Shown here: positions 28,291 through 45,926 of the stretch, piece by piece | Position numbering within the stretch: position 1 is the stretch's first letter | Layout of the letters: each line of letters starts with the position of its first letter | Assembly (NCBI GenBank): GCA_038318285.1 | Contig: JBBQCC010000001.1 | Span: 1-55,634, forward strand | Direction of reading: 5' to 3' | Length of the DNA stretch: 55,634 nucleotides | From: Planctomycetota bacterium | Lineage (GTDB): Bacteria > Planctomycetota > UBA1135 > GCA-002686595 | Made by a program: the position numbers and the translations under genes | Notes under the pieces: generated by a model | Told to the model about the DNA's origin: nothing | Database searches by the model: none | What the model saw: only the letters and a program-made list of their open reading frames with translations

Positions 28291-28884
28291 ATGACACAAA
28301 CTCGTCCTGCCCCGAATCCGACCCCGAAGAAGCCTGTCGCGCAAAACAGCGCCCCGAACTCCACGGGACGCCTGGAACTCGACGAGAAGGCCATCGAGGC
28401 CTCGAAGAAGTCCCTCGACGACGGCGTGGTGACGCCCACGTACGGCCCGTGGCGCGACGACGTGGTGCGCCTGCTGAACGACGCGCTCGCGACCGAGATC
28501 ACCTGTGTGCTGCGCTACCGCCGGCACTACTTCACGGTCGACGGCGTGGAGTCGCCGGCCATCAAGGCCGAGTTCCTCGTGCACGCCAACGAGGAGCTCG
28601 CGCATGCGGACGCGCTGGCCGAGCGCATCGTGCAACTCGGCGGTGAGCCCGACCTGAACCCCGCGACGCTCGGGGAACGCAGCCACGCCGACTACGACGA
28701 GTCGAGCTCCCTCAACGCGATGATCAAGTCGAACCTGATCGCCGAGCGGGTCGCGATCGAGACCTACCGCCAGATGATTCGCCTGATCGGCGACAAGGAT
28801 CCGACGACGAAGGGCGTCTTGGAAAAGGTGCTCGCCGACGAGGAAGAGCACGCCGACGAGTTGAAGGACTGGCTGCACAAGTGA
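28291..28884 (+). CDS. Ferritin-like di-iron protein (bacterioferritin/Dps superfamily) with N-terminal extension
   Basis: It has two ExxH di-iron motifs (NEELAHAD and DEEEHADE) in a four-helix-bundle-like sequence. The start is either ATG 28291 or GTG 28255. Confidence 0.8.
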   Translation: MTQTRPAPNPTPKKPVAQNSAPNSTGRLELDEKAIEASKKSLDDGVVTPTYGPWRDDVVRLLNDALATEITCVLRYRRHYFTVDGVESPAIKAEFLVHANEELAHADALAERIVQLGGEPDLNPATLGERSHADYDESSSLNAMIKSNLIAERVAIETYRQMIRLIGDKDPTTKGVLEKVLADEEEHADELKDWLHK

Positions 28885-28924: not shown

Positions 28925-31786
28925 TCAGCCGCCCTTCTCTGCCACGCGCTCGAGCACCCGATGTTCGAGTTCGGCCCACTCGGGCATATCGCGCAGGGGG
29001 TCCAGCACGCGCTCGCTCTGCAGGTCGGCGACGTCGCTGTAGCCCGCGTCGACGGCCTGCGAGAAGGTCGCGAGTGCGCGCTGCAGGCAGCGATCGGCGA
29101 CCGTGTCGCGGTCGGACTCTTCGATCTGATCCGCCTCGCGCACCGTCGCCGAAAGCATGAGCCACTTGCCCGTCAAGCGGCGCAGCGTGCGCCAGGCGAC
29201 CGGGTACATGCTCTGCGCCTTCTCGAGTGCCTCGATCGCGCGCGGGAGCGAGCCGCTGCGCGCTTCGATCTCGCAGATGCCCAGCCACCATTCGCCCATG
29301 TACTGCGCGAACTGCGGGTTCTGCGGCTCGTTCGCGCGCACGGGCTCGAGGATCTCCATCGCGCGATGGAACAGCGCGATGCCCTCGGTCGGATCGGTCG
29401 GCCCGGTCATCCCGCCCAAGTTCGCGGTCGCGATCGCCCAGGTCGCGCGCGAGCGCAGCTCGTCGGGACGCGCCTTGCACAACGCCTCCTGGCTGTTCAT
29501 CGCGTCCTTCATCAGCGCGATCGATTCGTCGTGGGTCTCCTCGTCGCCACCCAGCGCGCCCGCGAGGCTGGCACGGCAATCGTTCAGCGCCGTCGCGTAC
29601 TCGGTGTTCGAGGGGAAGTCGCGCACGAGGCCCTCGAGGATCTCGAGCGCACGTCGGAAGTGGGGGATCGATCCGCGCCGGTCGGTGAGACGCCACGTCG
29701 TCGAACCCAGGTTGATCAGTGCGTCGCCCAGCGCCGAGCGCGCTGTACTGGAGAGCGGGTCGAGCTCGAGAGAGCGTGTCTCGACGCTCACGGCTTCCTC
29801 GAGCACGGGCAGCGCCTCGTCGGGCTGGCCGCCTTCGATCAGTTGGTAGCTGAGGCTGCACAGGCTGGCGCCCAACATGAGCAGCGAGTGCGCATCGTTC
29901 GTGCGCTCCGCCTCGCGGCGAGCGAGTTCGACGCCTTCGCGCTGGCGCTTCAGGCTCTCTTCCGTGCGTCCGAGGATGAACAGCGTCGTGGCCGAGTGCG
30001 TCATCGCGTTGCGGAGCAGGCTCGTTCGCTCGCTCTCGCGCGCAGGACCGAGGTCCGCCTTCTCGATGCGGCGCACCGCTTCCTCCGTGTCTGCGAGCGA
30101 GTCCTCGTTGTGGCCGAGCTTGCGCAGAACCTGTGCGCGTCGCATGTGCGCGAGACCCGTCTGCCAGTCGAGCTCGCCCGGCCGCAGTTCGCTCGGATCG
30201 GCGGCTTCGAGCGCGTCCACGGCTTCGCCCAGCAGTGTGAGTGCTTCTTCGTTGCGACCCATCTGACGACGAATCTCACCGACGCGCGCGCGCGCGATCG
30301 CGACGCGCGCGCTGTTCATTTCCTGGCCTTCCCCGATGCGCATCAGGTCTTCGTTCAGCGTCAGCGCGTCACCGAGGATCTTCGCGCGCAGGTCTTCCAT
30401 TCCGGGCACGTTGTCCAGGTCGCGGTCCCCGACGCGCGAGAGCAGGTCCTCGATGGACTGCGCAGCGACATCGAGGCTGGATCGTGCGCGGTCGCGCTGC
30501 GCGCGCGCGTCGTCGAGCGCAGCACGGATCTCGGCGTTCGCAGCGCGCTGCTGGATCCACAGGACGGTCGGTACGCCGAGCAGCAGGAGGAGCGCGAGCG
30601 CGATCACTGCCGCGTGCGCTGGGCGTCTTTGCGCGAAGCGCGCCGCGCGGAGCAACGGGCCCGCCGGTCGAGCCTCGATCGGGCGGTGCTCCAGGACGCG
30701 CGTCAGGTCGGCGGCCAGCGCTGCCGCGCCGTCGTAACGACGCGACGGCTCGCGATCCATGGCCGTGAGGCACACGACCGCGAGGTCTCGCGGAATCGTC
30801 GGATTCAGCCGCCGCGGCGGAATTGCGCGCCCTTCGTCGATCTTCTGCAGCATCGCCGCCGTGTTGTCGGCCGCGTAGGGCAGGGCATGCGTGAGCAGCT
30901 CGTACAGCGAAGCACCCAGCGAGTAGACGTCGCTGCGCGCTCCGCTCGAAGCGGTGCCGCCGGCCACGATCTCGGGCGGCATGTACGGCATGGACCCGAG
31001 GTGCGAGCCCGATTGCGTGAGGCGTTTCGCGCCCTGGTTCGACGACAGCCCGAAGTCGACGATCATCACGCGGCCCGTGCGCGTGATCATCACGTTGCTG
31101 GGCTTCATGTCGCGGTGCAGGACGCCGCGACGGTGCGCGTGTTCGAGCGCTTCGGCGACCTCGCGCACGATGCGGGCGATGCACTCGCACCACGTGCCGT
31201 CGTACAGCGGGGACGAGCCCTCGCCGGGAAGTTGCGCGAGCAGATCGGCGCCGCTCAGCGTCGCGATGTCACGACTGCCGAGCTTCTCCAGCACGTCGCC
31301 CAGCGATGCACCGGCGACGAGTTCCATCGCGAAGTACGGGATGCCGCGTTCCTCGCCGACGACGTACACGGGCACGATGCCGGGGTGCTGCAACCGCGCC
31401 GTGGCCTCGACTTCGCGCCGGAAACGATCGCGCGCGCCCTCGAAGTACATGTGCTCGGGACGGATCAGCTTGAGCGCCACTTCGCGATCGAGCGACGTCT
31501 GACGCGCGCGGTAGACCACGCCCATCCCGCCCGAACCGAGTCGCGAGATCAGCTCGAAATCACCGAGTCGATCGGGGAAGTCCGCGCCGCTGCCGGTCGC
31601 GCTCGCCTTCGATCCGAAGCCACCGATCAGTCCCGCCGCGCGCAGCGTGCGGATGCGGCTCTGCAGCGAGGCCGCGAGTTCGGGATGCGCCGCGCACAGC
31701 GCGTCGACGGCCACGTCGCCTTCGGACTCCATGCGGTCGAGGCACTCGACGACGAGCGCTTCGACGTCAGATGAGGAGAGGCTCAT
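28925..31786 (-). CDS. Ser/Thr protein kinase with TM helix and extracytoplasmic TPR repeats (second copy)
   Basis: The Met at 31786 (MSLSSSDVEAL) gives 953 aa. It has GSGGMGVVYRARQ with VALKLIR, HRDMKPSNVMI, DFGLS and the TM segment AAVIALALLLLLGVPTVLWI, followed by TPR-like repeats. Confidence 0.9.
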   Translation of the reverse strand: MSLSSSDVEALVVECLDRMESEGDVAVDALCAAHPELAASLQSRIRTLRAAGLIGGFGSKASATGSGADFPDRLGDFELISRLGSGGMGVVYRARQTSLDREVALKLIRPEHMYFEGARDRFRREVEATARLQHPGIVPVYVVGEERGIPYFAMELVAGASLGDVLEKLGSRDIATLSGADLLAQLPGEGSSPLYDGTWCECIARIVREVAEALEHAHRRGVLHRDMKPSNVMITRTGRVMIVDFGLSSNQGAKRLTQSGSHLGSMPYMPPEIVAGGTASSGARSDVYSLGASLYELLTHALPYAADNTAAMLQKIDEGRAIPPRRLNPTIPRDLAVVCLTAMDREPSRRYDGAAALAADLTRVLEHRPIEARPAGPLLRAARFAQRRPAHAAVIALALLLLLGVPTVLWIQQRAANAEIRAALDDARAQRDRARSSLDVAAQSIEDLLSRVGDRDLDNVPGMEDLRAKILGDALTLNEDLMRIGEGQEMNSARVAIARARVGEIRRQMGRNEEALTLLGEAVDALEAADPSELRPGELDWQTGLAHMRRAQVLRKLGHNEDSLADTEEAVRRIEKADLGPARESERTSLLRNAMTHSATTLFILGRTEESLKRQREGVELARREAERTNDAHSLLMLGASLCSLSYQLIEGGQPDEALPVLEEAVSVETRSLELDPLSSTARSALGDALINLGSTTWRLTDRRGSIPHFRRALEILEGLVRDFPSNTEYATALNDCRASLAGALGGDEETHDESIALMKDAMNSQEALCKARPDELRSRATWAIATANLGGMTGPTDPTEGIALFHRAMEILEPVRANEPQNPQFAQYMGEWWLGICEIEARSGSLPRAIEALEKAQSMYPVAWRTLRRLTGKWLMLSATVREADQIEESDRDTVADRCLQRALATFSQAVDAGYSDVADLQSERVLDPLRDMPEWAELEHRVLERVAEKGG

Positions 31787-31851
31787 GCGGTTCGGTTCCT
31801 CGGCGGGTGCTCCGGCGGTGCTAGCATCCGTGCAGGCAGACGCCGATCCCG

Positions 31852-32448
31852 ATGCCCGACGATAGCGCAGAACTCGCAGAGCAGGCAGCTCGCGGTGACG
31901 CGGGTGCGATGCAATCGCTGCTCGAGCAACACCTGGACGGCTTGCGCGCATTCGTACGGCTGCGCACCGGCCCCGAACTGCGTCGGCGCGAATCCTCCTC
32001 GGACCTGGTGCAGTCCGTGTGCCGCGAGATCCTCGAGCAAGCGCACCGCTTCCAGTACCCGAGCGAGTCCGCGTTCCGCCGCTGGCTGTACACGACGGCG
32101 CTGCGCAAGATCTCCGACCGCGCCGAGCACTGGCGCGCGCAGAAGCGCGACGTCGGCCGCGAACAGGCGTTCCCGTCGCAAGGCGGCGAGGCCGGGTTGA
32201 TGCGGCGCTACGCCTCGTTCTCGAGCCCCAGTCAACACGCGATGTTGCGCGAGGAAGTTGAGCGCGTCGAACGTGCGTTCGAGCAGCTCTCGGAGGAACA
32301 GCGCGAGGTCATCACACTCGCCCACGTCGCCGGGCAGTCGCGGGCCGAGATCGCCGAGCACATGGGGCGCACGGAAGGGGCCGTGCGCGTGCTGCTGCAC
32401 CGTTCGCTGGCGCGGCTCGCGGAGATCCTGGAAACGCCGCGAACATGA
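31852..32448 (+). CDS. ECF-family RNA polymerase sigma-70 factor
   Basis: 198-aa ORF, divergent from the kinase with a 65-bp spacer. It has a region 2 (DLVQSVCREIL, RRWLYTTALRKI) and the region-4 HTH QSRAEIAEHMGRTEGAVRVLLHRSLARL. Confidence 0.88.
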   Translation: MPDDSAELAEQAARGDAGAMQSLLEQHLDGLRAFVRLRTGPELRRRESSSDLVQSVCREILEQAHRFQYPSESAFRRWLYTTALRKISDRAEHWRAQKRDVGREQAFPSQGGEAGLMRRYASFSSPSQHAMLREEVERVERAFEQLSEEQREVITLAHVAGQSRAEIAEHMGRTEGAVRVLLHRSLARLAEILETPRT

Positions 32449-34064: not shown

Positions 34065-34835
34065 ATGCGCATCGTCTCCCTGTGCCCCAGCCTGACCGAG
34101 CTCGTCTTCGCCCTCGGGCGTGGTGACGAGTTGGTCGGAGTCACCGAGTGGTGCGTGCACCCCGAGGCCGGCGTCGCACGCGTCGAGAAGGTCGGCGGGA
34201 CGAAGACGCCCGACGTCGCACGCATCGTCGCTCTGGCACCTGACCTCGTGCTGATGAACGAGGAGGAGAACCGGCGCGAGGACGCGGAGGCGCTGCGCGC
34301 GGCGGGCCTCGAGTGCCACGTCTCGATGCCGCGTGATGCCGCGGAGACGGCGGACATGGTGCGTTCGATCGCGACGGCAATCGAGCGCCCGAAAGAGGGC
34401 GCGGCGATCGCACTCGACATCGAACGCCGAGTCGTCGAGGCTCGGCTCAAGGCCGACGGGAAGCCGCGCGTGCGCTTCGCGTACTTGATCTGGCGCAAGC
34501 CGTTCATGGCCGTGAACGGTGACACGTACGCCAGCTCGTTGCTCGAGCTGGCCGGCGGCGAGAACGTCTTCCACGATCGCGCGGATCGCTATCCGCTCGT
34601 CACTGCGGAGGAACTTGCCGCAGCCGCGCCCGATGCGATCCTCCTGTGCACGGAGCCATTCCCGTTCCAGGAGCGTCACGCCGACGAGTTGGCGACGTTG
34701 ACCGGGCTCGCGCGCCATCGCTTCGAGATCGTGGACGGCGAATACCTGTCGTGGCACGGCTCGCGCACACCGGCGGGCGTCGACTACGCGGCGTCGCGCA
34801 TCGAAGCGGCGCGCACGTCGATCGGCGCGGTCTGA
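34065..34835 (+). CDS. Cobalamin/metal-binding TroA-BtuF-like (helical backbone) protein, no signal peptide
   Basis: 256-aa ORF. The N-terminal RIVSLCPSLTELVFALG...LVGVT and KVGGTKTPDVARIVALAPDLVL are typical of class III periplasmic-binding-fold proteins. Confidence 0.72.
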   Translation: MRIVSLCPSLTELVFALGRGDELVGVTEWCVHPEAGVARVEKVGGTKTPDVARIVALAPDLVLMNEEENRREDAEALRAAGLECHVSMPRDAAETADMVRSIATAIERPKEGAAIALDIERRVVEARLKADGKPRVRFAYLIWRKPFMAVNGDTYASSLLELAGGENVFHDRADRYPLVTAEELAAAAPDAILLCTEPFPFQERHADELATLTGLARHRFEIVDGEYLSWHGSRTPAGVDYAASRIEAARTSIGAV

Positions 34836-34854: not shown

Positions 34855-36252
34855 TCAGCGCGGCTTGTAGCGCCAGACGATGTCCTTCGCGTCGTCGGTG
34901 CCGCCGTCGTCCACACCGTCGGGTCCGACGGACCACAAGATCACGAGCCCGCCGTCGTTGAACCCGCAGCGGATCGGCTTGCCGTCGAAGGGGTCGCTCG
35001 TCTTCGGGATGAATTCGAGCAACGCCTTCGCGTCGGTGCGGAACGCCAAGAGCGCCGTGCGCGCCAGCACGAGTCGTGCCTCGAGCTCGTCCGCCAGCGC
35101 CGTGATCGCGTCGGGCGCCGTGGCGAGTGCGCTGGAGATCGGTGCCATCACGCGGTCGAACCAGCCCGGTCTCGGCGGCGACGCGCGCCGGAACGCGGCA
35201 TCGTCCAGGCTCGCGATGCGCTGCCCCCAGGTGTCGAGGAAATAGGCCTGGTCGTACGAGATGCGCAGGCTCGCCGGCAGGAACGAGTTCGCGGGGAGCT
35301 CGCTCCGATCTCCGCCGTGACGGATCAGCTCGAACGCGCGGTTCCCGAACGCACGCTCACCGGTGGCTGCGGTGGCGAGCTGCGCACGCGGGCGCATCGC
35401 CTCGAGATCCCTCTCGAGCCACGCGAGGTCCGTGCCCGGGTCGAGACGGGGCAGCGCGAGCTCGATCATGCCCAGCAGGCTGCGCTCGGAATCGAACACG
35501 CCGAACGCGCCGACGAGGAACGGCGCGCCCTCGTAGATGTGCGCGACGTCGCGTTGTGCGCGCAGGAGATCGGGGACGCGATCGAGTCTTTCGGACCACA
35601 GGGCCTGCAAGAGTTCGAGCTGCAGCGATGCGCCGACGTCGATCGTCGACTGGATGGGAAGCGTGGGAAACGTCGCGCCGGTCGCCGTCAGGCTGTCGAC
35701 GATCACCTGCGGGTCGATGGGGCCGTAACGGCCCGCGAGCATTCCGACCTCGCCGTGTGCGGCCATGCCCATCGCGGTCAGCCGCACCGCTTCGAGCCCA
35801 CACGGCGGCGTCACCACGATGCCGTCGTGCGAGTTCAAGATGTCGAGCACGCGTTGCACGGCGGCGGCGGCGTTCGCGCTGGATCCGGCGCAAGTCTCGA
35901 GCGCGGCGAACGCTTCCTCGGCCTCACCGCCGAACTGACCTTGCGCGGACTTCTCGCGCAGGGCGCCGAACATTGCCGCATCGGTCAGGGCGACGGGATC
36001 CCAGCGCGTGCGCGCGGCTGTCGCTTGCGCGAGCCACTGCGTCGGTTCGGGACGCGGATCGGCCGGGCGTTGCAGGTCCTCGGGCAGCGACGGCGCGCCC
36101 GACGCGGTGATCGCCAGGAGCTCGTCGTTGCGCCACTTCGCTCCGGCGAAACGCAGTACGAACGCAGTGGCGAGCACGAGCAGCACGAGCCCGATCGTCA
36201 CGACGCCGACGAGTCCGAGGCGCATGGGCTTCTTCAGCGTGGACTGCTTCAT
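34855..36252 (-). CDS. N-terminally anchored hypothetical protein with pseudopilin(GspG)-like C-terminal motif; last gene of the multiheme operon
   Basis: The Met at 36252 (MKQSTLKKPMRLGLVGVVTIGLVLLVLATAFVL) gives 465 aa. The body is mostly helical. The C-terminus DPFDGKPIRC...LVILWSVGPDGVDDGGTDDAKDIVW resembles the end of type II secretion pseudopilins. Confidence 0.65.
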   Translation of the reverse strand: MKQSTLKKPMRLGLVGVVTIGLVLLVLATAFVLRFAGAKWRNDELLAITASGAPSLPEDLQRPADPRPEPTQWLAQATAARTRWDPVALTDAAMFGALREKSAQGQFGGEAEEAFAALETCAGSSANAAAAVQRVLDILNSHDGIVVTPPCGLEAVRLTAMGMAAHGEVGMLAGRYGPIDPQVIVDSLTATGATFPTLPIQSTIDVGASLQLELLQALWSERLDRVPDLLRAQRDVAHIYEGAPFLVGAFGVFDSERSLLGMIELALPRLDPGTDLAWLERDLEAMRPRAQLATAATGERAFGNRAFELIRHGGDRSELPANSFLPASLRISYDQAYFLDTWGQRIASLDDAAFRRASPPRPGWFDRVMAPISSALATAPDAITALADELEARLVLARTALLAFRTDAKALLEFIPKTSDPFDGKPIRCGFNDGGLVILWSVGPDGVDDGGTDDAKDIVWRYKPR

Positions 36253-36293: not shown

Positions 36294-37682
36294 TCAGTCG
36301 TGCACTTGTCCGTCCGGGTGGCAGTCGTAGCAGGCTGGGCTCGTGTACGAGTACCCGCGGACGCCGTTGTGGTGACCGTTCGTCTGACTCGGCGAGTGCT
36401 CGTGGCAGTTGATGCACGCGAACTGCCGGAACGAGTTCGGTGCCGGGTGGCACTCCTGACAAGAGATGTGGTTGTGGTGGCCGCTCGTGATCGGGAATTG
36501 CGGGTGCGTGAACGTCCCGTCGCCCCACGTGCGCGTCGTGTGGCAACCCTCGCACGACATGCCGATGCCGTTGCTGGCGTGCGGCGGCTGCGACGTGTTC
36601 GCGTAGTCGCTCGCGTGGCAGTCGATGCACCCCGAGGTGATGCCGGCGTGGCTGAAGTTCGCCCCCTTCCAAGTGCGGGTGGTGTGGCAATCCTCGCACG
36701 CCGTCGAGAAGTTCTGCGCGACGTGGTTCGGCGCCGTCTGGTAGTCGCTCGCGTGGCAGTCGATGCAACCCGACGTGATGCCGTTGTGGTTGAAGTGCGC
36801 GCCGCTCCAGCTGTTGATCGTGTGGCAGTCCTGGCACATCGTCGAGAAGTTCCCCGACACGTGGTTGTCGGCGCCCTGGTAGTCGCTCGCGTGGCAGGAG
36901 AAGCAGGCCGTGCTCAAGCCGCCGAAGTCCTTGCCCATGTGACAGGCCGAGCACGACAGTCCCGAGTGGCCGCCCTGCAGCGGGAAGAAACCGTGCTCGA
37001 AGCCGGCGCGCGACCAGTCGGTCGGCAGGTGGCAGCGTTGGCAACCGTCCGTCCAGCCCTGCGCGACGTGGTTCGGCTGCAGCGCGACGGCGAGGTCCTT
37101 CTGGTGGCAGTCCGCGCAGTTCGTGCTGGCCTGCACGAAGTTCCCGACCTGTGCGCCCGGGTGGCAGGCCCAACACGCCGTCGATGCGTGCGCGCCGGCG
37201 AGCGGGAAGCGCGTCGTCGCGTGCTGTGCGATCTGTGCCTTCGGGCGCCAATCGACGGCCGTCTCCTCGTGACACGTCGTGCAACCGGATCCGAGCTTGC
37301 CCTCGTGGATGTCCTCGTGACAACCGATGCAGCCGCGCTCCGAGAACCGCGCGACCGGTCCGCGGTCGTTGTGACAGCGCAGGCATTCGGCAGCCTCGTG
37401 CGCGCCGACGAGCGCGACACCCGTCTGCGCCGCGTGATCGAACTGGAAGTCGTCACGGATCGAGTGCCAGGTCTCGCCCGCGTGGCACAGCGCGCAGTCG
37501 GCCGGGAACGTGTCGTGGGGAACGACGGGGCCGCGCTCGGCCTGCCAATGCTGCGGCGGAACCGGATCCCAATCGTGTCGCGCACTGCCGTCGATCGCGC
37601 AGGCGAGCAGGCCCAGCGCCAGGGCCAGCGCCAGGATCGCAGCGTGCGCGCGCGGCATTCCGAAAAGACTTCGCGTTTGCAT
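36294..37682 (-). CDS. Multiheme c-type cytochrome lipoprotein (17 CxxCH motifs)
   Basis: The Met at 37682 is followed by a signal with lipobox-like LGLLAC. I counted 17 CxxCH motifs by hand. Three tandem ~45-aa repeats are present (C.SCHASDY...NFST.C.DCHT...W.GA.F.H.GITSG). Confidence 0.9.
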   Translation of the reverse strand: MQTRSLFGMPRAHAAILALALALGLLACAIDGSARHDWDPVPPQHWQAERGPVVPHDTFPADCALCHAGETWHSIRDDFQFDHAAQTGVALVGAHEAAECLRCHNDRGPVARFSERGCIGCHEDIHEGKLGSGCTTCHEETAVDWRPKAQIAQHATTRFPLAGAHASTACWACHPGAQVGNFVQASTNCADCHQKDLAVALQPNHVAQGWTDGCQRCHLPTDWSRAGFEHGFFPLQGGHSGLSCSACHMGKDFGGLSTACFSCHASDYQGADNHVSGNFSTMCQDCHTINSWSGAHFNHNGITSGCIDCHASDYQTAPNHVAQNFSTACEDCHTTRTWKGANFSHAGITSGCIDCHASDYANTSQPPHASNGIGMSCEGCHTTRTWGDGTFTHPQFPITSGHHNHISCQECHPAPNSFRQFACINCHEHSPSQTNGHHNGVRGYSYTSPACYDCHPDGQVHD

Positions 37683-37690
37683 GGTGGATC

Positions 37691-39364
37691 TCAGAAGCGG
37701 GTCTGGAGCCGGACGCCGAGCGTCCACGAATCGAGGTCGTCACCCATCGTGCGGTCGCCGTACACCGACAGATCCCAGCTTTCGGTCAGCGGCACGTCCA
37801 CCGATCCGAAGATCGAGTGCTGCGCGATCTGGTCGTCTGCGCCGCTGAAATCGGACTGTGTGTACCAGAACGACTGCCAGCCGAGCCCCAGGCCCGTCGT
37901 GCCGATCGTGTCGTGCAGTTGCAGACGCGCACCCGGGCCGGAGCTGTACGAGCCCTCGGCCCACTGCGCGGCGCCCGAGATCGAACTGCCACTGCCGAAC
38001 ACCTCGGACAGCGTTGCGCCGAGTTCGCCGCTGTAGCCGTTGTCGTTTTCGTCGAACCAGTTCTCGACGCGCGCATCGACGCGCACGCGCGTGCTGAGCG
38101 ACGTCCAGCCACTCAGGCCGATCCGGTCCAGCACGCTGTTTTTCACGTCGTCGGCGCGCCGCGGCAGGAATTCGTCGCGCAGCAGCTCGGGGATGCGACG
38201 TTCCAGTGCGTTGATTGCCAGTCCGCTCGTGGCCGTCGTGCGCCACGTCGCCGTGATGCGCGCTTCGGTCAGCTCGGCACCCGAGCCCTTGATCGTGTCA
38301 CTCGAATCGTAGAGGTCCACCCAAGCCGTCGCGCGCAACGAGACGCTCTCGGAAGGGCGCACCTCGGTCTGGGCGATGACGAGGTTGCGGTCCTGCTCGC
38401 CCTCGTGCCAGGTGTTCTGGTACGCGAGGCCGACCGTCGCGCGCCGCTCCGGATCGAAGGCGTAGCGGTAGTGCACCGACGCCTGCAGATCCTGGAACGA
38501 AGTGCGATCGGCGAACGGCTCCGGCATCCAGCCGAACGACACGCCAAAATCCGATCCTCCGCGTGTGCGGTGGTTCCATTCGGCGCCGTCGAGCAGTCCG
38601 AGTTCGGGCAGTCCCGCCTGCAGGAATCGGCCGAATTGGAAGTGGTTCGGTCGATCCTCGGTGCCGCCGAACTCGTACACGAACCGGTCGATGCGCACGT
38701 GCGACTGGTCGTAGTCGTACAGCCCGTCGTCGTTCGAGACGTCGCTCTGCCGGGTGAACGCCTCGACGTCGAACCGCAGCGAACCACCGTCGCCGAACGG
38801 GTTCTCGAGGCGGACGTCCGTGCCCACGGCCGCGAGTCCGTACTTGCGCGCGCCCTCGACGTCGTCCGTACCGTCGAAGCGGAACCAGGCGCGACCCGAC
38901 AAGCGCCGTTCGCGCTCCTCGGGGGCGATGCCGAACGCGGGTGCGAGCAGCGGCGTCTCGTCGTTCCAGGTCTCGGGCGGATGGGTCCACGGCGGGTGTT
39001 CGACGGCCGGAGCGGGCGTCCCCTGGACTTGTGGCGGAGTCTTCGTGCCGGGGCGCGAGTCGGGCACGATCGCTTCGCCGCGCGTGCCGACGACGGGCTT
39101 GTCCGATCCGACGTCGAGTTCGACGCGCGCGCCGTTCGTCGTGACGGACCGCACGATCCCGGTAGCGACGGTCGTGGTCTCCAGTCGGAACTCGACGCGA
39201 TCGCCTTCGGCCAGACCGCTGGACGATCCGCGATCGACGTAGACGGCCGAGCCCGCGATGCTCGTCACGCGAATCTCGACGCGCACGTCGGCGGCCGCAG
39301 CGATTCCGCACAAGAGCACGACTCCGAACACACCGTACAGCATCGACGATGCACGCGTTCCCAT
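37691..39364 (-). CDS. Outer-membrane beta-barrel protein (porin-like) with N-terminal soluble beta domain and Pro-rich linker
   Basis: The Met at 39364 overlaps the upstream stop by 1 nt (TGATG). It has a signal peptide (MLYGVFGVVLLCGIAAAADV) and amphipathic alternating segments rich in G/S/T/Y/W/D/R. The C-terminus WTLGVRLQTRF has an OMP-type terminal Phe. The product is 557 aa. Confidence 0.75.
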   Translation of the reverse strand: MGTRASSMLYGVFGVVLLCGIAAAADVRVEIRVTSIAGSAVYVDRGSSSGLAEGDRVEFRLETTTVATGIVRSVTTNGARVELDVGSDKPVVGTRGEAIVPDSRPGTKTPPQVQGTPAPAVEHPPWTHPPETWNDETPLLAPAFGIAPEERERRLSGRAWFRFDGTDDVEGARKYGLAAVGTDVRLENPFGDGGSLRFDVEAFTRQSDVSNDDGLYDYDQSHVRIDRFVYEFGGTEDRPNHFQFGRFLQAGLPELGLLDGAEWNHRTRGGSDFGVSFGWMPEPFADRTSFQDLQASVHYRYAFDPERRATVGLAYQNTWHEGEQDRNLVIAQTEVRPSESVSLRATAWVDLYDSSDTIKGSGAELTEARITATWRTTATSGLAINALERRIPELLRDEFLPRRADDVKNSVLDRIGLSGWTSLSTRVRVDARVENWFDENDNGYSGELGATLSEVFGSGSSISGAAQWAEGSYSSGPGARLQLHDTIGTTGLGLGWQSFWYTQSDFSGADDQIAQHSIFGSVDVPLTESWDLSVYGDRTMGDDLDSWTLGVRLQTRF

Positions 39365-41757
39365 CAGAACCCTCCTCGGCGCGCGACGTGGCAATCGCCG
39401 CACTCGACGCCCAGCGGCTTGTAACGGACGGCGCTGCCCCCGCCCGGGAGCGCCCAGGGCACGTGACACGCCGAACAGGCGAGTTGCGCGTGCGTGGTGT
39501 CGAGCGCGAAGCGCGCGTCGTGCTGGTGGTCGAAGCGGAGCGCGAGGAAGTCGGGCGCCGTCGCATGGCACGTCGCGCAGTCCGTCGATCCGTTTCGCGA
39601 GAACTGGCCCGCGTGCGGATCCGCGTGACAATCCGAGCAGTTCGTGCCGGCTGCGCGCGCGAAGCCGCGCGCGCCGAATGCCGTGTTGGAGGCCGCGCCG
39701 CCGCTGCGCGGGTGGCAACTCGCACAGCCCGCATCGGCGTGCACGCCCGTCAGGGCGAAACCCGTCCACGCAGCGTGGTCGAAAGCGCTCGCAGCGACCT
39801 CGGTGAACGATTCGGTCGTGTGACAGCGCGCGCACCCGGTGCGGCCGCCGACGTCGCCCGGGCGCCTCGGCCCATCGAACGCGCCCGCGTGCACATCGGT
39901 GTGACACGTCGCGCAGTTCTGGAACGAGCCTTCGCCGGCGTGGACGGTCGACCGCAGCGCGCGCTCGACACCGGCGGCGGTCGCGACCGCGCCGGAAACT
40001 TGCACGATCTCGCTGCCGCTCGGGTGACACGTCGCGCAGTCCGCTCGCGCGTGCGCGCCGTCGAGCGCGAAGCCGGTCGAGCGCGTGTGATCGAAGGCGT
40101 CGCGCGCTTGCTCGAAGCCATGCGGATCGTGGCAGGCCGTGCATGTCGGTGCATCCGGTCGCCGCGCGAAGAACCCGCCGTGCGCGTCGACGTGACACGT
40201 CGCGCAGTCCTCCGGCGACCCGGGGTAGGACTCGGCGACGACGCCGAAGCTGCGCCCGCGCTCGTCCGGTGCGGCGCGAGCGGCGTGACAGGCGGCGCAC
40301 TCGGACTCGGCGTGGGCGCCGACCAGCGCGAATCCGGTCCAGCGCGCGTGGTCGAAGGTCTCGGCGGCGACGTGCTGGAAGTCCGTCGTCGTGTGACAGG
40401 TCGCGCAGTCGTCAGCGCGCGCATTCGTGGCTGCGCTCGCGGTCGCCGCAAGACTCGCGGCCTTCTGCGCGAAGAAGCCTGTGTGCGCGTCGGCGTGGCA
40501 TGCGCTGCACGTCGCATTGGTGCCGTGGAAGACGCGCGGCGCGTCGCCGATCTGCGCGTGACACGCGCGACAGGCCGTCTTTGAGTGCGCGCCGGTCAGC
40601 GCGAACGCAGTGCGCGCGTGCTGGGCGAAGCCGAATGCCGGCGGGTCGAAGCGCTCGCGTTCGTGGCAGGCTAGGCAGCCGCCCTGCGCGAAAGCTCCCG
40701 TCTGGAACTGTCCGCCGTGCGGATCGGCGTGACAGGACGCGCAGTCGTCGGGCGTGCGCCCCGGGTGTGAGGCGCGGAAGTCGGCGAAGGCCTCTGCGTG
40801 TGCGTCCGGCGCCCTCAAGGTCGCGTGGCAGTCCGTGCAGGCGGCCGCGGCGTGCGGCGCGACGAGCGGGAAGCCGGTGAGGGCGTGCTCCGCGACGGTC
40901 AGGGTGCGCGGGCTGGCGAACGGACCGCCCGCGACCGGGTGGCAGCTCGCGCACGTCGCGCCGCGCTCGACGGCGATGCGCGCGACGATCGCGCTGATGA
41001 ACGGGGATGCGTGGGGCGATGCGTGACAGGCCTCGCAGCTGCGCGGAGTGCGCGTCGCCGTCTCGCCGCCGCCGGCCTCGATGGCGAACGCGGTGCCGGG
41101 CGCGTGACAGGCGACGCAGCTCGCCTGGGCGTGCACGCCGACGAGCGCGAACGAACTCGGGTGTTCGAACTCGGCGACGACGGCGAACGGCTCCGTCTCG
41201 CCGTGGCACGAGCGGCAGTCGGGCAACTTGCCCGCGTGCGGATCCTGGTGACAGCCCGCGCAATCCTGCGACTTGCCCGTGAAGCGCTGCGCGTCCTTTT
41301 CGAGCAGGACGACGTCGGCGTTTGCGTGACAGGCGCGGCAGGCGAGGCTCGTGTGCACGCCGCTCAGCGCGAAGCCCAGGCCCTCGTGCGCGAACGCATC
41401 GCGGTCGGCGACGCCGGCGAGCGCGAAGGCTCCTGCGCTGACCAACTCGAAGTCCACGCCATGGTGTTCTGCGTGGCACGTGCCGCAGCGCGCCACGTTG
41501 GGCAGCTTGCCGTGGAATCCAGTGCCCGCGGCGACTTGCGCCTCGACGTCCGCGTGGCACTCCGCACAGGCGGCGCGCATTTCGTCGGGCGATCCGCCAT
41601 GACACACGGCGCAGTCGTCGCCGTCGATCGAGGCCGACTTCTCGTGCACTGCGCTGATCGGGCCTGGGGACGCCGATTGCGTGTCCCACAACGCCAGCGA
41701 GATCGCCAGCAATGCCGAAGCGACCCCCAGCCAGATTCCCGCCGTGCGCGACTTCAT
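39364..41757 (-). CDS. Giant multiheme c-type cytochrome (26 CxxCH motifs; tandem c7-like tri-heme modules)
   Basis: The Met at 41757 overlaps the upstream stop (ATGA). It has an N-terminal signal/anchor (IWLGVASALLAISLAL). I counted 26 CxxCH motifs by hand. There are eight recurrences of F-x-H...F-x-L-x-G-x-H-x(4-5)-CxxCH. The product is 797 aa. Confidence 0.92.
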   Translation of the reverse strand: MKSRTAGIWLGVASALLAISLALWDTQSASPGPISAVHEKSASIDGDDCAVCHGGSPDEMRAACAECHADVEAQVAAGTGFHGKLPNVARCGTCHAEHHGVDFELVSAGAFALAGVADRDAFAHEGLGFALSGVHTSLACRACHANADVVLLEKDAQRFTGKSQDCAGCHQDPHAGKLPDCRSCHGETEPFAVVAEFEHPSSFALVGVHAQASCVACHAPGTAFAIEAGGGETATRTPRSCEACHASPHASPFISAIVARIAVERGATCASCHPVAGGPFASPRTLTVAEHALTGFPLVAPHAAAACTDCHATLRAPDAHAEAFADFRASHPGRTPDDCASCHADPHGGQFQTGAFAQGGCLACHERERFDPPAFGFAQHARTAFALTGAHSKTACRACHAQIGDAPRVFHGTNATCSACHADAHTGFFAQKAASLAATASAATNARADDCATCHTTTDFQHVAAETFDHARWTGFALVGAHAESECAACHAARAAPDERGRSFGVVAESYPGSPEDCATCHVDAHGGFFARRPDAPTCTACHDPHGFEQARDAFDHTRSTGFALDGAHARADCATCHPSGSEIVQVSGAVATAAGVERALRSTVHAGEGSFQNCATCHTDVHAGAFDGPRRPGDVGGRTGCARCHTTESFTEVAASAFDHAAWTGFALTGVHADAGCASCHPRSGGAASNTAFGARGFARAAGTNCSDCHADPHAGQFSRNGSTDCATCHATAPDFLALRFDHQHDARFALDTTHAQLACSACHVPWALPGGGSAVRYKPLGVECGDCHVARRGGF

Positions 41758-44135
41758 CCGAATAGATGCGCGTAGCGCAGCGCGAGGAAGACGTGCCAGC
41801 CGGTGATCAGGACCATGAACAGTGCCGCCCAGCGGTGGAACCAGCGCCAGGAAGCCAGGATCGTGCGCAGATCCTCGAAGTGCGCGGCCATGAGCGCCGT
41901 GCGGTGCGCCCGGCGCGCGAGCTCGGTCATGCGTGCCACATGATGGGTCGCAATGCCCTCCGCGACCGCCTGCGTGCGCAGCGCGGCGACGCGCCGACGG
42001 GCCGCGCGCTGGCTGGTCAACAGGGCGCGAATGCGGGCCCAGTACGAACCCTGCCAGCGTTCCTCCGTGACGACGCGCTCGACCTCCGCGCGCAGCTTGT
42101 CGGCGAACCCGCCGCGGCCGCGGTCCCACTCCGCCGACAGCGCGGCGAGTTGGCTGCGCACTTCGTCGAGCTCGAGCTCGCGCCCGTTCGCCGCCCGCGG
42201 CACGAACGAATAGAGGTAGCGTCCGATCGCGCCCGTCAGAACCAGGAACGCCATCGCCCACGCCGCATGACCGCCGACGGTCGATCGCGGATCCATGGCG
42301 CCGTGAACCAGGACGAGCAGCAGTGCGCCGATGCCGGTCGCGACGTGCGACGTCATCCAACCGCGCAGCGATCCCGGGATCCAGGCGAGCCGCAGATTGC
42401 GGCGCGCGAGGTACGCGAGGTTCGCCAGCACGAGGGCGGCGGCACCGAAGCCGCACGCGAGACCGATCGTGCCGGTGGGCGAGAGCAGGGCATGGTCGGG
42501 ATGGTGGGGGCGCGCGCTCGGCGCCGCGCCGTAGTAATCCGCGTGCGTCAGGACCCAGCCCAGCACCAGAACCGCGAGCCCGAGCGCGACGCACAGCGCC
42601 GGGACGAGACCCGTGCCCTGCTCGGCGAGCGGCGCCGGCTTCTCGTGCTGGCTCGGATCGAGCGATACGCCCGAGGCTTCGAGCACCTCGGTCGGCGGCG
42701 TTCCGCCCGCGAACACGAAGACCTCGTCGTTCGCCACCTGGGTCGTGCTTCCGTCCGCGAGCCGCAGCGCAACGGAGTCCTCGGCGATCGAGAGCACTTG
42801 GCTGCCGAACAGCGCCGTCAGTTGACCATCTCGCAACGCGTCCGCGACGTGCGCCTCGTTGCGCGACTTCAGGCGGAAGAACGCGTCCTTGCGGTACGAG
42901 ATCGAGACGTGATTTCCCGGCTGTTCCGCGAGGCCGAGGGCGGCTTCGACCGCGCTGTCGCCGCCGCCGACGACCAGAATTCGCCGCCCCTGGTACGAGT
43001 GCGCGTCCAGGAGCGAGTACGACACCTTGTTCAGGTCCTCGCCCGGAACGCCCAGCTTGCGCGGCGTGCCGCGTCGGCCGAGGGCGAGCACGACGCTGCG
43101 CGCGTCGAGGTGTCCCGTCAGCGTGTGGACGCGCAGGATGCCGTCGTCGAGCGTCTCGACGCGCTGGAACTGTTGGCCGCGGTGGATCGCGAGTTCGTGC
43201 TCGCGCACGACGCGTTCCCACAGCTCGATCAGCTCCTCTTTCGAGTAGCTCGTGCGCGTGAGCCGACCGACGAGCGGCAGGTCCACCGGCTGCGTCATGA
43301 CGAGCTTGCGGCGCGGGTACTTCGCGACCGTGCCGCCCAGCTCATCCTGTTCCAGCGTCGTGTACGACAGCCCGAGTTCCTTGGCCCGCAGCGAGCAGGC
43401 GATGCCCGCCGGGCCGGCGCCGACGATGACGAGGTCGAGCACATCCGATGTCTCGACTTCCGCGACCGCGACGCCGCCTCCGGCCTCCGCACGCGACGGC
43501 GTTGCATTTCCCCGGCGTCGCAGGCTGGGCGCGCTGACGAGCCGTGCGCGTCGCGCCGCCTCGTCTGCCGCTGCCGTGCCGTGCGCGATGGCGGTGCGCA
43601 CGAGCGCGTATCCCGTGACCTCGCCCGCCAGGAACAGTCCCGGCACGTGCGCGGACTCGTGGTTCTCGCGCAACACCGGCAGGTCTTTGCGATCGCTGAT
43701 GTCGCCGAGGGTGAGCGCAATCGCGCCGACCGGGCATTCCGCCGCGCAGCGTCCGTGGCCGACGCAGCGCGCGCCGTGCACGACGACCGCTTGACCGTGG
43801 ACGAGCTCGAGCACGCCCTCTTCGGGACACGCGGCGACGCAGGTGCCGCACCCGATGCAGCGCGACAGGTCGATGTGCGGATGCTGCAAGCGCGCGCGGT
43901 GACTGCCGGTCGCGCGCGCGCGATCCCGCTCCGCCAGCGTCTCGCGCAGTTGGCCCGACTCGGCTCGCCGCAGCGCGATGAGCCCGAGCGTCACGGCCAA
44001 GCCCACGACGAGGGCGATGAGTAGGATCCAGATCAAGGTGGACGCGCCGAACAAGTCCAGTGCCGAAAAGACCGTCCGCGACTTCGGTCTGCGTGGCGAC
44101 CGACTCTCCGGCCTCTTGGTTCGGCGGGGGAGCAT
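41754..44135 (-). CDS. Membrane fusion oxidoreductase: TM + 2x[4Fe-4S] ferredoxin + FAD/NAD(P)-binding (TrxR-like, no CxxC) + 5-TM domain with two H-x13-H helices
   Basis: 793-aa ORF. It has the cluster motifs CIGCGTCVAACP and CVGHGRCAAECP, and the dinucleotide motifs VIVGAGPAGIA and ILVVGGGDSAVEAAL. The C-terminal TM helices SHVATGIGALLLVLVHG and FHRWAALFMVLITGWHV each carry two His 14 residues apart. Confidence 0.85.
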   Translation of the reverse strand: MLPRRTKRPESRSPRRPKSRTVFSALDLFGASTLIWILLIALVVGLAVTLGLIALRRAESGQLRETLAERDRARATGSHRARLQHPHIDLSRCIGCGTCVAACPEEGVLELVHGQAVVVHGARCVGHGRCAAECPVGAIALTLGDISDRKDLPVLRENHESAHVPGLFLAGEVTGYALVRTAIAHGTAAADEAARRARLVSAPSLRRRGNATPSRAEAGGGVAVAEVETSDVLDLVIVGAGPAGIACSLRAKELGLSYTTLEQDELGGTVAKYPRRKLVMTQPVDLPLVGRLTRTSYSKEELIELWERVVREHELAIHRGQQFQRVETLDDGILRVHTLTGHLDARSVVLALGRRGTPRKLGVPGEDLNKVSYSLLDAHSYQGRRILVVGGGDSAVEAALGLAEQPGNHVSISYRKDAFFRLKSRNEAHVADALRDGQLTALFGSQVLSIAEDSVALRLADGSTTQVANDEVFVFAGGTPPTEVLEASGVSLDPSQHEKPAPLAEQGTGLVPALCVALGLAVLVLGWVLTHADYYGAAPSARPHHPDHALLSPTGTIGLACGFGAAALVLANLAYLARRNLRLAWIPGSLRGWMTSHVATGIGALLLVLVHGAMDPRSTVGGHAAWAMAFLVLTGAIGRYLYSFVPRAANGRELELDEVRSQLAALSAEWDRGRGGFADKLRAEVERVVTEERWQGSYWARIRALLTSQRAARRRVAALRTQAVAEGIATHHVARMTELARRAHRTALMAAHFEDLRTILASWRWFHRWAALFMVLITGWHVFLALRYAHLFG

Positions 44136-44444
44136 CGCATCCCCAAGCCTGGGAGTGCTTTAGGACGAAAGTACCATCCCGGCCTCTGAGCCGGGACGGG
44201 CGGGTCGCACCGCTGCCGAACGCGGTCTGTGCGGCGGCGCACGCCCCAGCGTCCAGATCGTGGACGTCGGCTGGTCCCGTGCATCGCTCCCGGGGATGGG
44301 AATCCGACCCCCTCGCGGACCCACGGATCCGGTTCACGATTGCATCCTCTGGGCGCCGGGTGGGGAATGTACGCGCCGCTGCCCCCTCGCCCCCAAGACG
44401 GGTCGGACAGCTCTTTCCCAACCGCTTCGCACCGAGGCTCCCTC

Positions 44445-45926
44445 ATGCATCGCACTCTGAAGCTCTCCACGTTTCTCGCACTCTCGCCGGCGCTCTTCGC
44501 TCAGGGCACGAAGCCCTACGAAGGACCCGGTCCCGTCGCCGAAGGCGGGTGCAACCCGGGCAACACCGCCAACCTGTGCGTGCCCGTCGACAGCACGCAC
44601 CAGGTCGTCGTGTTCGACGGTGTCGGCGGCAGCGGCCCGGCGAATCCGCTCGACCCGTGCCAGCGCAACGACGACGACGTCACGCTGGCGATCAACCTGC
44701 CGTTCACGTTCGACCTGTTCGGCTCGCCCCAGACGCAGGTGTTCATCAACAACAACGGGAACATCTCGTTCGGCTCGAGCTTCACCACGTTCACTTCGAC
44801 CGGCTTCCCCGTCGCCGGCTTCCCGATGATCGCGCCCTTCTGGGCCGACGTGGACACGCGCGACGGCGGGAGCGGCGTCGTCTACTACAAGATCGATGCG
44901 AACCGCCTGACGGTCACGTGGGACCACGTCGGCTACTACAGCTCCCACTCCAACCTGCTGAGCACCTTCCAGGTCATCATCAGCGACGGCACCGATCCCC
45001 TCGTGGGCCTCGGGCAAAACGTCTGCTTCTGCTACGGCGACATGGGCTGGACGACGGGCGACGCCTCGAGCGGCGTCGGCGGCTTCGGAGGCGTGCCCGC
45101 GACCGTGGGCATCAACGCCGGTGACGGCACGAACTTCTTCCAGCTCGGCCTCTTCGACCAGACGGGCAACGCCTACGACGGTCCGGGCGGCGCGAACGAC
45201 GGCGTCGACTTCCTCGACAACACGCGCCAGTGCTTCGTCACGGGCACGATCCAGAACTCGCCGCCGATCTTCATCAACAGCCCGAGCGGCTGCTTGGGCG
45301 CGTCCGTCGGCGTGCCTTTGACCTTCACCGTGCAAGCGATCGGTCCCGAGGCCGGTCAGACGGTGAACATCGTCGAGACGTCGGGCACGCCGAACGTCGT
45401 GTGCGTGCCGACGCCGGGCAACCCGGCCTCGATCCAGTGCACGTTCACGCCGAGCAGTGGCCAGACGGGCATCACGAACCTCGTGTTCGTGGCGACGGAC
45501 GACTTCATGCCGCCGGCGAGCTCGCAGCTCACCGTCTGCATCGACGCGGCCGAGTGCCACCAACTCGTCGGGCGCGGAGGCACGGGTTCGAACGTCGTGC
45601 TGTTCGGCCACGCCTTCGCAACGCACCTGACCTCGGTACGCCAGTCCTGGCCGGTCACGCTCTCGAGTCACCCGAGCCTGCGCGTGCCCCTGCTGACGAC
45701 CGGCCAACTGAACTTTTCGGTGCAGACGGTCATGTACAACCCGTCGGCATTCCCCACGAATCCCTCGCAGTGGTCCGCGCGGATGCGCCTCACCGTTCTG
45801 CCCGGCGCGATCGTGCAGGGCGAGCTGTTCGACACCTGGAACGGCATCCACCAGTCGCTCGCGACCTACCTCGACGGGAACGGCGACGCCTTCATGACCT
45901 TCCCGTTCACGATCGACGGGATGTGA
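44445..45926 (+). CDS. Secreted nidogen-like (NIDO) domain protein
   Basis: The Met at 44445 is followed by a signal peptide (MHRTLKLSTFLALSPALFAQG). The segment LPFTFDLFG...VFINNNGNISFG...IAPFWADVDTR...VYY matches the NIDO-domain pattern. The product is 493 aa. Confidence 0.72.
   Translation: MHRTLKLSTFLALSPALFAQGTKPYEGPGPVAEGGCNPGNTANLCVPVDSTHQVVVFDGVGGSGPANPLDPCQRNDDDVTLAINLPFTFDLFGSPQTQVFINNNGNISFGSSFTTFTSTGFPVAGFPMIAPFWADVDTRDGGSGVVYYKIDANRLTVTWDHVGYYSSHSNLLSTFQVIISDGTDPLVGLGQNVCFCYGDMGWTTGDASSGVGGFGGVPATVGINAGDGTNFFQLGLFDQTGNAYDGPGGANDGVDFLDNTRQCFVTGTIQNSPPIFINSPSGCLGASVGVPLTFTVQAIGPEAGQTVNIVETSGTPNVVCVPTPGNPASIQCTFTPSSGQTGITNLVFVATDDFMPPASSQLTVCIDAAECHQLVGRGGTGSNVVLFGHAFATHLTSVRQSWPVTLSSHPSLRVPLLTTGQLNFSVQTVMYNPSAFPTNPSQWSARMRLTVLPGAIVQGELFDTWNGIHQSLATYLDGNGDAFMTFPFTIDGM

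Follow-up and report, generated by a model that had tools for sequence, protein, structure and literature searches.

A 26-heme cytochrome of tandem tri-heme modules encoded in a conserved five-protein system of Planctomycetota and other bacteria

Known extracellular electron transfer starts at quinol dehydrogenases and uses small diffusing periplasmic cytochromes. The nearest analogue of the locus considered here is found among the PCC3 clusters of Sideroxydans, Leptothrix and other Proteobacteria, which were predicted bioinformatically (He et al. 2017, PMC5566968; Hoover et al. 2023, PMC9900912) and comprise a porin, a variable extracellular cytochrome of 10-35 or more hemes, a periplasmic cytochrome of 21, 24 or 27 hemes and a membrane protein of ~300 amino acids (aa). 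The periplasmic cytochrome consists of 7-8 repeats, each about 60-66 aa long, and the authors who defined the clusters proposed that it reaches across the periplasm (PMC5566968, PMC9900912). The inner-membrane protein of PCC3 and PCC4 has five transmembrane (TM) helices, with SGxxG on TM4 and Wx3Hx13H on TM3 and TM5, for which an analogy to ferric reductases and NOX proteins has been drawn (PMC5566968). Here we analyze a 55,634-nucleotide stretch of Planctomycetota DNA (contig JBBQCC010000001.1; hereafter the window) that encodes a matching list of parts, namely a predicted porin, a variable and putatively outer multiheme cytochrome, a many-heme periplasmic cytochrome and an inner-membrane protein. 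The many-heme cytochrome is the product of gene B (39364..41757, minus strand), a c-type cytochrome of 797 aa with 26 CxxCH motifs and 26 further conserved His, which matches Pfam Cytochrome_C7 with an E value of 3.2e-29. A frame plot, open reading frames (ORFs) and domain scans place it second in a five-gene minus-strand operon, A-B-C-D-E, with overlapping or very short junctions.

A first-pass annotation had located this cytochrome at 39364-41757, and the positions hold while the strand has to be corrected: the plus strand of this interval translates to nonsense with stops, and the minus strand gives a single 797-aa ORF running from MKSRTAG to ARRGGF. As had been noticed at the outset, the start codon overlaps the stop of the upstream oxidoreductase gene, here gene A, in the sequence ATGA; likewise the gene B stop overlaps the start of gene C as TGATG. 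The gene B frame stays open for 488 codons 5′ of its true start (39364-43221, minus strand), across gene A in another frame, and a mechanical ORF list therefore runs it to 43221 because stop codons are rare at ~70% GC. We set the start at 41757 from a third-position GC frame plot and from the N-termini of homologs.

By script count, all 52 Cys of protein B fall within the 26 CxxCH motifs, and the protein also contains 60 His and only two Met, including the initiator. Sequences shuffled at constant composition contain on average 0.25 such motifs, and the resulting density of 30.7 aa per heme reproduces the hand count of 26 sites in 797 aa, or about one per 30 residues, with which the first-pass annotation had begun. 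The apoprotein has a mass of 81.8 kDa, or ~97.8 kDa with hemes. Besides the heme-binding motifs, an alignment of 66 B homologs shows exactly 26 more His that are invariant or almost invariant. Since 26 conserved spare His are available for 26 hemes, each heme would have a distal His, and it is strongly indicated that all 26 hemes are bis-His ligated and that none has a free coordination site. With no coordination site open on any heme, the composition likewise strongly indicates electron transfer rather than catalysis. A catalytic role, for example as a nitrite, hydroxylamine, sulfite or sulfur reductase, is accordingly very improbable, although a single-sequence phmmer search against PDB did return hydroxylamine oxidoreductase; those matches are weak (E about 1e-4), motif-driven and confined to CxxCH-rich stretches, and we rejected them as a guide to function. 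Moreover, no CxxCK or other variant heme motif was found in B, and a conserved distal His is available for every heme.

The 26 hemes are distributed over an ordered architecture, all on the minus strand. An N-terminal hydrophobic helix (residues 5-24, 41686..41745), recognized by hydropathy, by an AlphaFold2 (AF2) helix at 6-28 and by the scarcity of signal-peptidase sites among homologs, is followed by an SPG...H38 stretch in which P31, G32 and H38 are invariant across the 66 homologs. H38, the assigned distal ligand of heme 1, stands about a dozen residues past the helix. There follow a membrane-proximal tri-heme head (residues 49-121, 41395..41613) with CxxCH at 49, 64 and 91, seven full tri-heme modules (residues 122-741, 39535..41394) starting at 122, 197, 289, 378, 468, 555 and 659, and a di-heme tail (residues 742-797, 39367..39534) that carries an invariant R-Y-K-P-L-G beta-hairpin with AF2 strands at 766-769 and 775-778. 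The tail is the most conserved segment of the protein in the Planctomycetota alignment (64% mean identity) and is a candidate docking end for outer-membrane partners.

Each full module reads F-x-H...GF-x-L-x-G-x-H-x4-CxxCH...CxxCH-x-D-x-H-x-G-x-F...CxxCH, spans 75-104 aa and supplies three hemes together with three spare His. This agrees well with the repeat of ~90 aa, with three hemes and extra His for bis-His ligation, that had been proposed for the protein. Its two signature elements also recur as often as had been claimed. For the first, said to occur eight times, the pattern F/A-x-H...F-x-L-x(3)-H-x4-CxxCH gave seven strict regular-expression matches (122, 289, 378, 468, 555, 659 and 742) and a spacing variant at 197. 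For the second, said to occur five to seven times, CxxCH-x-[DS]-x-H-x(2-3)-F gave six matches (241, 339, 417, 518, 615 and 707) and a variant at 166. Pairwise alignment scores between modules range from 108 to 180, as compared to 41 +/- 10 (maximum 75.5) for shuffled modules, and the repeat is therefore real beyond composition. What had been described as about eight tri-heme modules is thus correct as to the tandem tri-heme build and inexact in number, the actual layout being a tri-heme head, seven full modules and a di-heme tail.

We compared this architecture with known multiheme folds. The Pfam profile Cytochrome_C7 (PF14522, 'c7 and related') matches four stretches of B with 101 bits against a cut-off of 24.8, and its best stretch, residues 198-273, corresponds to one module and covers model positions 4-66 of 67. 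Judged by these profiles, the B module is c7-sized and c7-like in a broad sense, and the protein is generically of the c3/c7 class and lies outside the GSU1996 family. Indeed, TIGR04257 (nanowire_3heme), which describes the GSU1996-type c7 polymers, scores 21.8 bits, below its cut-off of 40. The best PDB match of a B family profile was GSU1996 itself (3OV0, E 3.8e-9), followed by OcwA, MtrF, UndA and MtrA; this alignment has a high compositional bias and rests mostly on CxxCH columns, and we rejected it as grounds for membership. The decaheme model TIGR03508 (MtrA/DmsE) reached 70.2 bits, below its cut-off of 192.2, and B has 26 hemes, not ten. The AF2 model of B (predicted local distance difference test score, pLDDT, 75.7; predicted template modeling score, pTM, 0.36) contains only short helices at the heme sites, as a string of loosely fixed modules might, and a Foldseek search of it against PDB returned no matches at E <= 10, multiheme cytochromes being too poor in secondary structure for a search of this kind.

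Hence the comparison with Geobacter sulfurreducens GSU1996 and GSU0592 (PDB 3OV0, 3OUQ and 3OUE), to which the first-pass annotation had turned, holds for the head-to-tail arrangement of tri-heme domains of the c3/c7 class and fails for family membership. GSU1996 has one His-Met ligated heme per domain, whereas all hemes of B appear to be bis-His ligated: with only two Met in B and 26 conserved non-motif His, none of its hemes would be His-Met ligated. The B modules further differ by adding a GF-x-L-x-G-x-H insert and the CxxCH-x-D-x-H-x-G-x-F motif, and B itself exceeds GSU1996 more than twofold in heme number, has a probable membrane anchor and belongs to a porin-cytochrome gene cluster. A second candidate for comparison was the '16-heme + 26-heme' operon of GSU2495 and SEEP-SRB1, which includes a six-bladed beta-propeller and a peptidyl-prolyl isomerase and whose cytochromes have signal peptides and no TM helices (Skennerton et al. 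2017, PMC5539420). It shares with our locus the number of 26 hemes and an adjoining cytochrome of about 16-17 hemes (PMC5539420; PMC12977616). In contrast, the beta-propeller and the isomerase are absent here and B has an N-terminal hydrophobic helix, and we rejected equivalence on gene context. The shared 26/17 heme pairing is probably coincidental, as the partner cytochrome D varies from 7 to 28 hemes.

Upstream of B, gene A (41754..44135, minus strand) encodes a 793-aa inner-membrane fusion protein with Fer4 and Pyr_redox_3 domains and TM helices. After an N-terminal TM helix, it has a ferredoxin domain with seven Cys at about 85-140, followed by an FAD/NAD(P)H flavoprotein at about 234-496 and, in residues 505-793, by a 5-TM domain. 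The flavoprotein matches Pyr_redox_3 with an E value of 4e-45; the named model closest to it is YpdA-like, and a CxxC disulfide is lacking. On the predicted helices of the 5-TM domain lie W593-x3-H597-x13-H611, TGAIG634 and W763-x3-H767-x13-H781. Across 75 species, the GxGxxG and GGGDSA motifs, the seven Fer4 Cys and the four TM His are >= 97% conserved. Homologs of A start straight with a TM helix followed by a positively charged stretch, and the soluble domains would therefore lie in the cytoplasm, where NAD(P)H is available.

Protein A thus shares the inner-membrane signature of PCC3, with TGAIG (T for S) and two Wx3Hx13H motifs. It differs in that the membrane protein is here fused to, and elsewhere encoded beside, an NAD(P)H flavoprotein with a ferredoxin domain, a linkage which suggests that the partner in the cytoplasm is NAD(P)H and not the quinone pool. 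In outline it also resembles NOX and ferric-reductase (FRD) proteins, in which electrons from a cytoplasmic NAD(P)H flavoprotein pass to a stacked pair of b-hemes on two Hx13H helices (analogy PMC5566968). Unlike those proteins, A has a Pyr_redox_3/YpdA-like flavoprotein placed N-terminal to the membrane domain and an additional ferredoxin domain, and its acceptor would be a multiheme c-type wire in place of O2 or Fe(III) themselves. The Pfam FRD profile did not match in the domain scan of A.

This outline, an NAD(P)H flavoprotein joined to a two-b-heme TM domain with Hx13H pairs (PMC5566968), invites the alternative that the operon encodes an assimilatory ferric reductase resembling the eukaryotic FRE/NOX enzymes, spending NAD(P)H on extracellular or mineral Fe(III) for uptake and not for respiration or redox balance. 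A Peripla_BP_2 gene that abuts the operon here and in the closest relatives, and a ferritin-like gene 6 kb away, point in the same direction. However, the binding-protein neighbor is lost outside the closest relatives, more than 40 hemes and a barrel make a costly route for assimilation, and neither an Fe(II) transporter nor a Fur-type regulator is evident beside the cluster. We therefore regard this function as quite unlikely.

Downstream of B, gene C (37691..39364, minus strand) encodes a 557-aa predicted outer-membrane protein, assigned from an AF2 model and Foldseek. Behind a signal peptide come a small beta domain (26-101) and a linker rich in Pro, and then the predicted 22-strand beta-barrel (154-556); the protein ends in LQTRF. 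The model, built with 49 homologs, has a pLDDT of 84.4 and a pTM of 0.77, and its top Foldseek matches in PDB are PapC/FimD usher pores and many porins, with E values down to 7.8e-10; no sequence-level family match was found for this protein. The conserved beta domain of ~75 aa and the Pro-rich linker, together residues 26-150, precede the barrel and are both present in the Elusimicrobiota homolog; the beta domain may serve as a periplasmic docking or plug domain. Gene D (36294..37727, minus strand, with its start probably at the ATG at 37682) encodes a multiheme cytochrome with 17 CxxCH and a lipobox-like LLAC, and gene E (34855..36252, minus strand), the last of the operon, a protein of 465 aa that has a single TM helix at its N-terminus and matched no family. 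This context agrees with the position first suggested for B, between the inner-membrane fusion protein and the predicted outer-membrane barrel.

Several of these features add to the likeness to PCC3. The periplasmic cytochromes of both systems are built of tri-heme repeats and vary in steps of three hemes (21/24/27 in PCC3; 17/20/23/26/29 in the B family), both have a low number of aa per heme (26-27 in PCC3, 30.7 in B), and 22 strands are predicted both for the L. cholodnii porin and for protein C. Cytochrome D, with 17 CxxCH and 7-28 hemes in its relatives, would be the counterpart of the variable extracellular cytochrome. In contrast to PCC3, with its repeats of about 60-66 aa, the B repeats measure 75-104 aa, the B family has 3n+2 hemes with a distinct head and tail and an N-terminal membrane helix, and the hosts are Planctomycetota, Verrucomicrobiota and Elusimicrobiota rather than Proteobacteria, the comparison being drawn with the published descriptions of PCC3. 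The likeness to MtrCAB of Shewanella (PDB 6R2Q) and OmaB-OmbB-OmcB of Geobacter is more distant and consists in a barrel, a periplasm-side cytochrome and a lipoprotein cytochrome, with MtrA, DmsE and MtrF showing weak profile similarities to B. MtrB has 26 strands, as compared to the 22 predicted for protein C. Furthermore, MtrA (10 hemes) and OmaB (8) stop short of the inner membrane and need the quinol dehydrogenases CymA, ImcH and CbcL as well as soluble carriers, whereas here a single 26-heme B would replace those steps and its input would be linked to NAD(P)H. We found no description of the B family in the literature on PCC3, on Planctomycetota electron transfer or on Hx13H proteins with multiheme cytochromes. 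Overall, the first interpretation of the locus was largely reasonable; its concept of a periplasm-spanning cytochrome of >20 hemes is not new (PMC5566968, PMC9900912), and its filing of the protein with GSU1996 was wrong. What sets the locus apart from PCC3 is the link to an NAD(P)H flavoprotein, the membrane helix, the head/spacer/tail build with 3n+2 hemes, and the host phyla.

To judge from its homologs, the system is widespread in Planctomycetota. The closest 120 homologs of B are full-length Planctomycetota proteins from metagenome-assembled genomes (MAGs), annotated as hypothetical, with exactly 26 hemes in 104/120 and 23 hemes in 12/120. At least 584 relatives were counted with one genome per species, and the best 80 of them come from Planctomycetota, apart from a few MAG records, and include the cultured Rohdeia mirabilis Pla163, whose locus lies at NZ_CP036290.1:529956-548340. 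A tblastn search with the window proteins, covering about 80 species genomes, R. mirabilis included, showed the order A-B-C-D kept nearly everywhere that the contig was long enough; gene E and the neighboring Peripla_BP_2 gene are restricted to the closest relatives. Among the compared Planctomycetota loci the heme number of B is fixed at 26 or 23, while that of D ranges from 7 to 28. The 23-heme forms are exactly one module short (residues ~512-612), and in one 29-heme form 85 aa are inserted. Clusters of the 23-heme subfamily have a 7-heme outer cytochrome and, after it, an additional protein of ~960 aa with 11 hemes. The MAG JANOGB01 has two copies of the whole cluster (loci L075 and L078).

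To look outside of this phylum, we searched exhaustively for the membrane domain of A. This revealed 1109 relatives, many of them stand-alone proteins of ~275-310 aa that match end to end, which we judged by their gene neighborhoods, their names being uninformative. Four neighborhoods were read, one from an Elusimicrobiota MAG, one from a Verrucomicrobiota MAG and two from further contigs, and in all four a Fer4+Pyr_redox protein (~450-480 aa), a membrane protein (~300-360 aa) and a B-like cytochrome are encoded by adjacent and often overlapping genes. The split counterparts of A, flavo-FeS protein plus membrane protein, occupy 6059-8403 in L084, 6652-8891 in L085, 4747-7004 in L086 and 4487-7001 in L087. 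A D-like cytochrome and a ~550-aa protein are also encoded near all four, downstream in three and upstream in the Elusimicrobiota locus. The ~550-aa protein was compared by sequence with barrel C for one locus (28% over 253 residues, E 1e-9), and from its size and position, and from the end sequences in the Elusimicrobiota locus, we infer that it is the counterpart of C in the other loci.

BLASTP aligned A with both the separate flavo-FeS protein (49% identity, E 7e-138) and the separate membrane protein (36% identity, E 2e-42), and since these are encoded by adjacent genes, protein A is a fusion of genes that neighbor one another elsewhere. Such a fusion, of the Rosetta-stone type, ties the flavoprotein functionally to the membrane protein and the cytochrome. 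Similarly, B matched the 20-heme (35% identity, E 2e-81) and 17-heme (34% identity, E 4e-65) forms of its family, and D its counterpart (44% identity, E 7e-122). By these sequence comparisons, gene B belongs to a conserved five-protein system that several bacterial phyla share.

In a global alignment, the proteins with 26, 20 and 17 hemes stay colinear through the anchor and the first ~13 hemes and once more in the final ~100 residues, with head and modules M1-M3/M4 colinear across all family members; only central modules are absent from the shorter forms, and the variable spacers fall at about 420-690 of B. Among 120 relatives of the 17-heme form, counting complete proteins, we found 17 hemes in 37, 20 in 28, 23 in 14, 26 in 10 and 29 in one, besides two with 19. 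Heme counts of 17, 20, 23, 26 and 29 form a 3n+2 series. The bridging wire that the first-pass annotation had imagined fits this series in the form of a spanning and adjustable wire with conserved head and tail.

Approximately 40/66 homologs have no small-residue -3/-1 site ahead of the invariant SPG...H motif, and the N-terminal helix is, on this family pattern, a probable uncleaved inner-membrane anchor, as had been suggested from the single sequence. We give somewhat better than even chances to a reading in which B is an inner-membrane-anchored wire that conducts reducing power from the cytoplasm to a porin-cytochrome in the outer membrane. The flavoprotein domain of A would oxidize NAD(P)H in the cytoplasm and pass electrons through the Fe-S clusters of A to two transmembrane b-hemes, with H597 and H767 as putative ligands on the cytoplasmic side and H611 and H781 on the periplasmic side. 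The sides are assigned in this way because the C-terminal helices are taken to run in-out-in-out-(long cytoplasmic loop)-in-out, by analogy with ferric-reductase/NOX domains. Electrons would then enter the first hemes of B, kept at the membrane surface by the uncleaved helix and the SPG...H38 motif, travel along its heme chain across the periplasm and leave through the C-terminal tail to barrel C and lipoprotein cytochrome D, and from there to an extracellular acceptor. The net result would be a quinone-independent export of cytoplasmic reducing equivalents. Spacing in GSU1996, MtrA and OmcS is about 0.8-1 nm per heme, and for 26 hemes this gives an estimated length for B of roughly 20-26 nm, which is comparable to a typical Gram-negative periplasm.

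The same chain could be run in the other direction, as a route of electron uptake from extracellular Fe(II), Mn(II) or reduced humics to the cytoplasmic side. Bis-His multiheme chains conduct reversibly, and PCC3, the nearest analogue, is found in Fe(II) oxidizers and has been modeled as an uptake route (PMC5566968, PMC9900912). Nevertheless, the cytoplasmic partner encoded here is an NAD(P)H-type flavoprotein with Fe-S clusters, and on established bioenergetics the reduction of NAD(P)+ (about -320 mV) by Fe(II) would be strongly uphill and inward flow would oppose the membrane potential. No quinone-site protein, oxidase or carbon-fixation genes were found in the window. The one cultured species that carries the cluster, R. 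mirabilis, has moreover been described as an aerobic heterotroph and not an iron oxidizer. Uptake is thus unlikely, and established bioenergetics favors outward flow, since NAD(P)H gives up electrons at low potential and the membrane potential assists their movement outward.

Several observations weigh against the anchored, outward-conducting wire as we have drawn it. Two concern protein A, in which the second Fer4 motif is one Cys short, with three (seven in total, not eight), and the two b-hemes are predicted from motifs. Others concern B: in the window its own sequence has possible signal-peptidase sites, SLA/LW and QSA/SP, and might be cleaved and soluble; the range of 17-29 hemes implies an about two-fold range of length, which makes a strict periplasm-ruler reading doubtful; and the MAG JAEUHZ01 ('new MAG-30') has two whole clusters, one with a 26-heme B (L006) and one with a 23-heme B (L072), which speaks against a wire length strictly fitted to the width of the periplasm. 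Given both versions in one MAG, we downgraded the strict ruler reading.

These last points bear on a further possibility, that B stores electrons in the periplasm, as a capacitor or shuttle that is soluble or only loosely tethered; its N-terminus would be a signal peptide that is cleaved off, and other carriers would finish the path to the outer membrane. Such a capacitor role has been suggested for GSU1996-type polymers and PCC3 cytochromes (PMC9900912). The candidate cleavage sites and the two lengths within one genome would suit it, as would the 17-heme forms, which at ~0.8-1 nm per heme may fall short of a typical periplasm. On the other hand, most homologs have no -3/-1 cleavage site, and head and tail are conserved while only the spacers vary, as expected of two fixed docking ends. 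In addition, the heme number of B changes in fixed steps and is strongly conserved in each lineage, in contrast to the free variation of the outer cytochrome D, and no small periplasmic cytochrome gene was found in the operon. A store is therefore rather improbable, and we retain the anchored wire as our preferred reading. A more specific version of it is offered tentatively, as a possibility that we would not yet call probable: B would be a length-adjustable wire, its 5-9 interchangeable tri-heme units linking a fixed head at the inner membrane to a fixed tail at the outer membrane; it would be fed by a NOX-like NAD(P)H-flavo-FeS-di-heme-b exporter, and would form with the barrel and the lipoprotein cytochrome a hard-wired, quinone-independent route from NAD(P)H to the exterior that is kept in Planctomycetota, Verrucomicrobiota and Elusimicrobiota.

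The chief interest of the system lies in its NAD(P)H-linked inner-membrane module, its quantized and adjustable length and the availability of a cultured carrier. Set beside the known routes, the B family may show another solution, in which a membrane-tethered cytochrome reaches the outer membrane and takes its electrons from NAD(P)H, bypassing the quinone pool. Hundreds of species-level genomes have the system, in phyla that do not count as electroactive, and, if the anchored wire is real, more organisms would be able to reduce minerals, humics or electrodes. The 3n+2 series with its constant ends amounts to a natural experiment on wire length, fusion protein A gives a concrete hypothesis for the PCC3/PCC4 inner-membrane protein of iron oxidizers, and R. 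mirabilis Pla163 opens the system to experiment.

A promoter/terminator consensus scan of 34-46 kb found nothing and is uninformative for this organism. The Peripla_BP_2 gene (34065-34835, plus strand), of the iron-siderophore/B12 type, adjoins the operon, is convergent toward its 3′ end and is kept in loci L003-L007 and L029. The ferritin-like gene (28213-28884, plus strand) lies about 6 kb from the operon, and the two neighbors together give a weak hint of a link to iron. Divergent from the operon, 44229-45926 (plus strand) encodes a protein of 565 aa whose Nidogen-like (NIDO) domain (E 1.7e-25) is of a type better known in animal extracellular matrix proteins. Farther away and unrelated to the operon, 1387-4569 (plus strand) encodes a ~1060-aa protein that mono-heme Cytochrom_C matches weakly close to the C-terminus and DUF7133 weakly and below threshold; it is similar to the large 'planctomycete-type' cytochrome c proteins. 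Finally, two Ser/Thr-kinase proteins of ~1000 aa with tetratricopeptide repeats (TPR), at 20950-24814 (minus strand) and 28925-32448, each stand beside a gene for an extracytoplasmic function (ECF) sigma factor, one pair co-directional and overlapping and the other divergent, and these pairs could be regulators.

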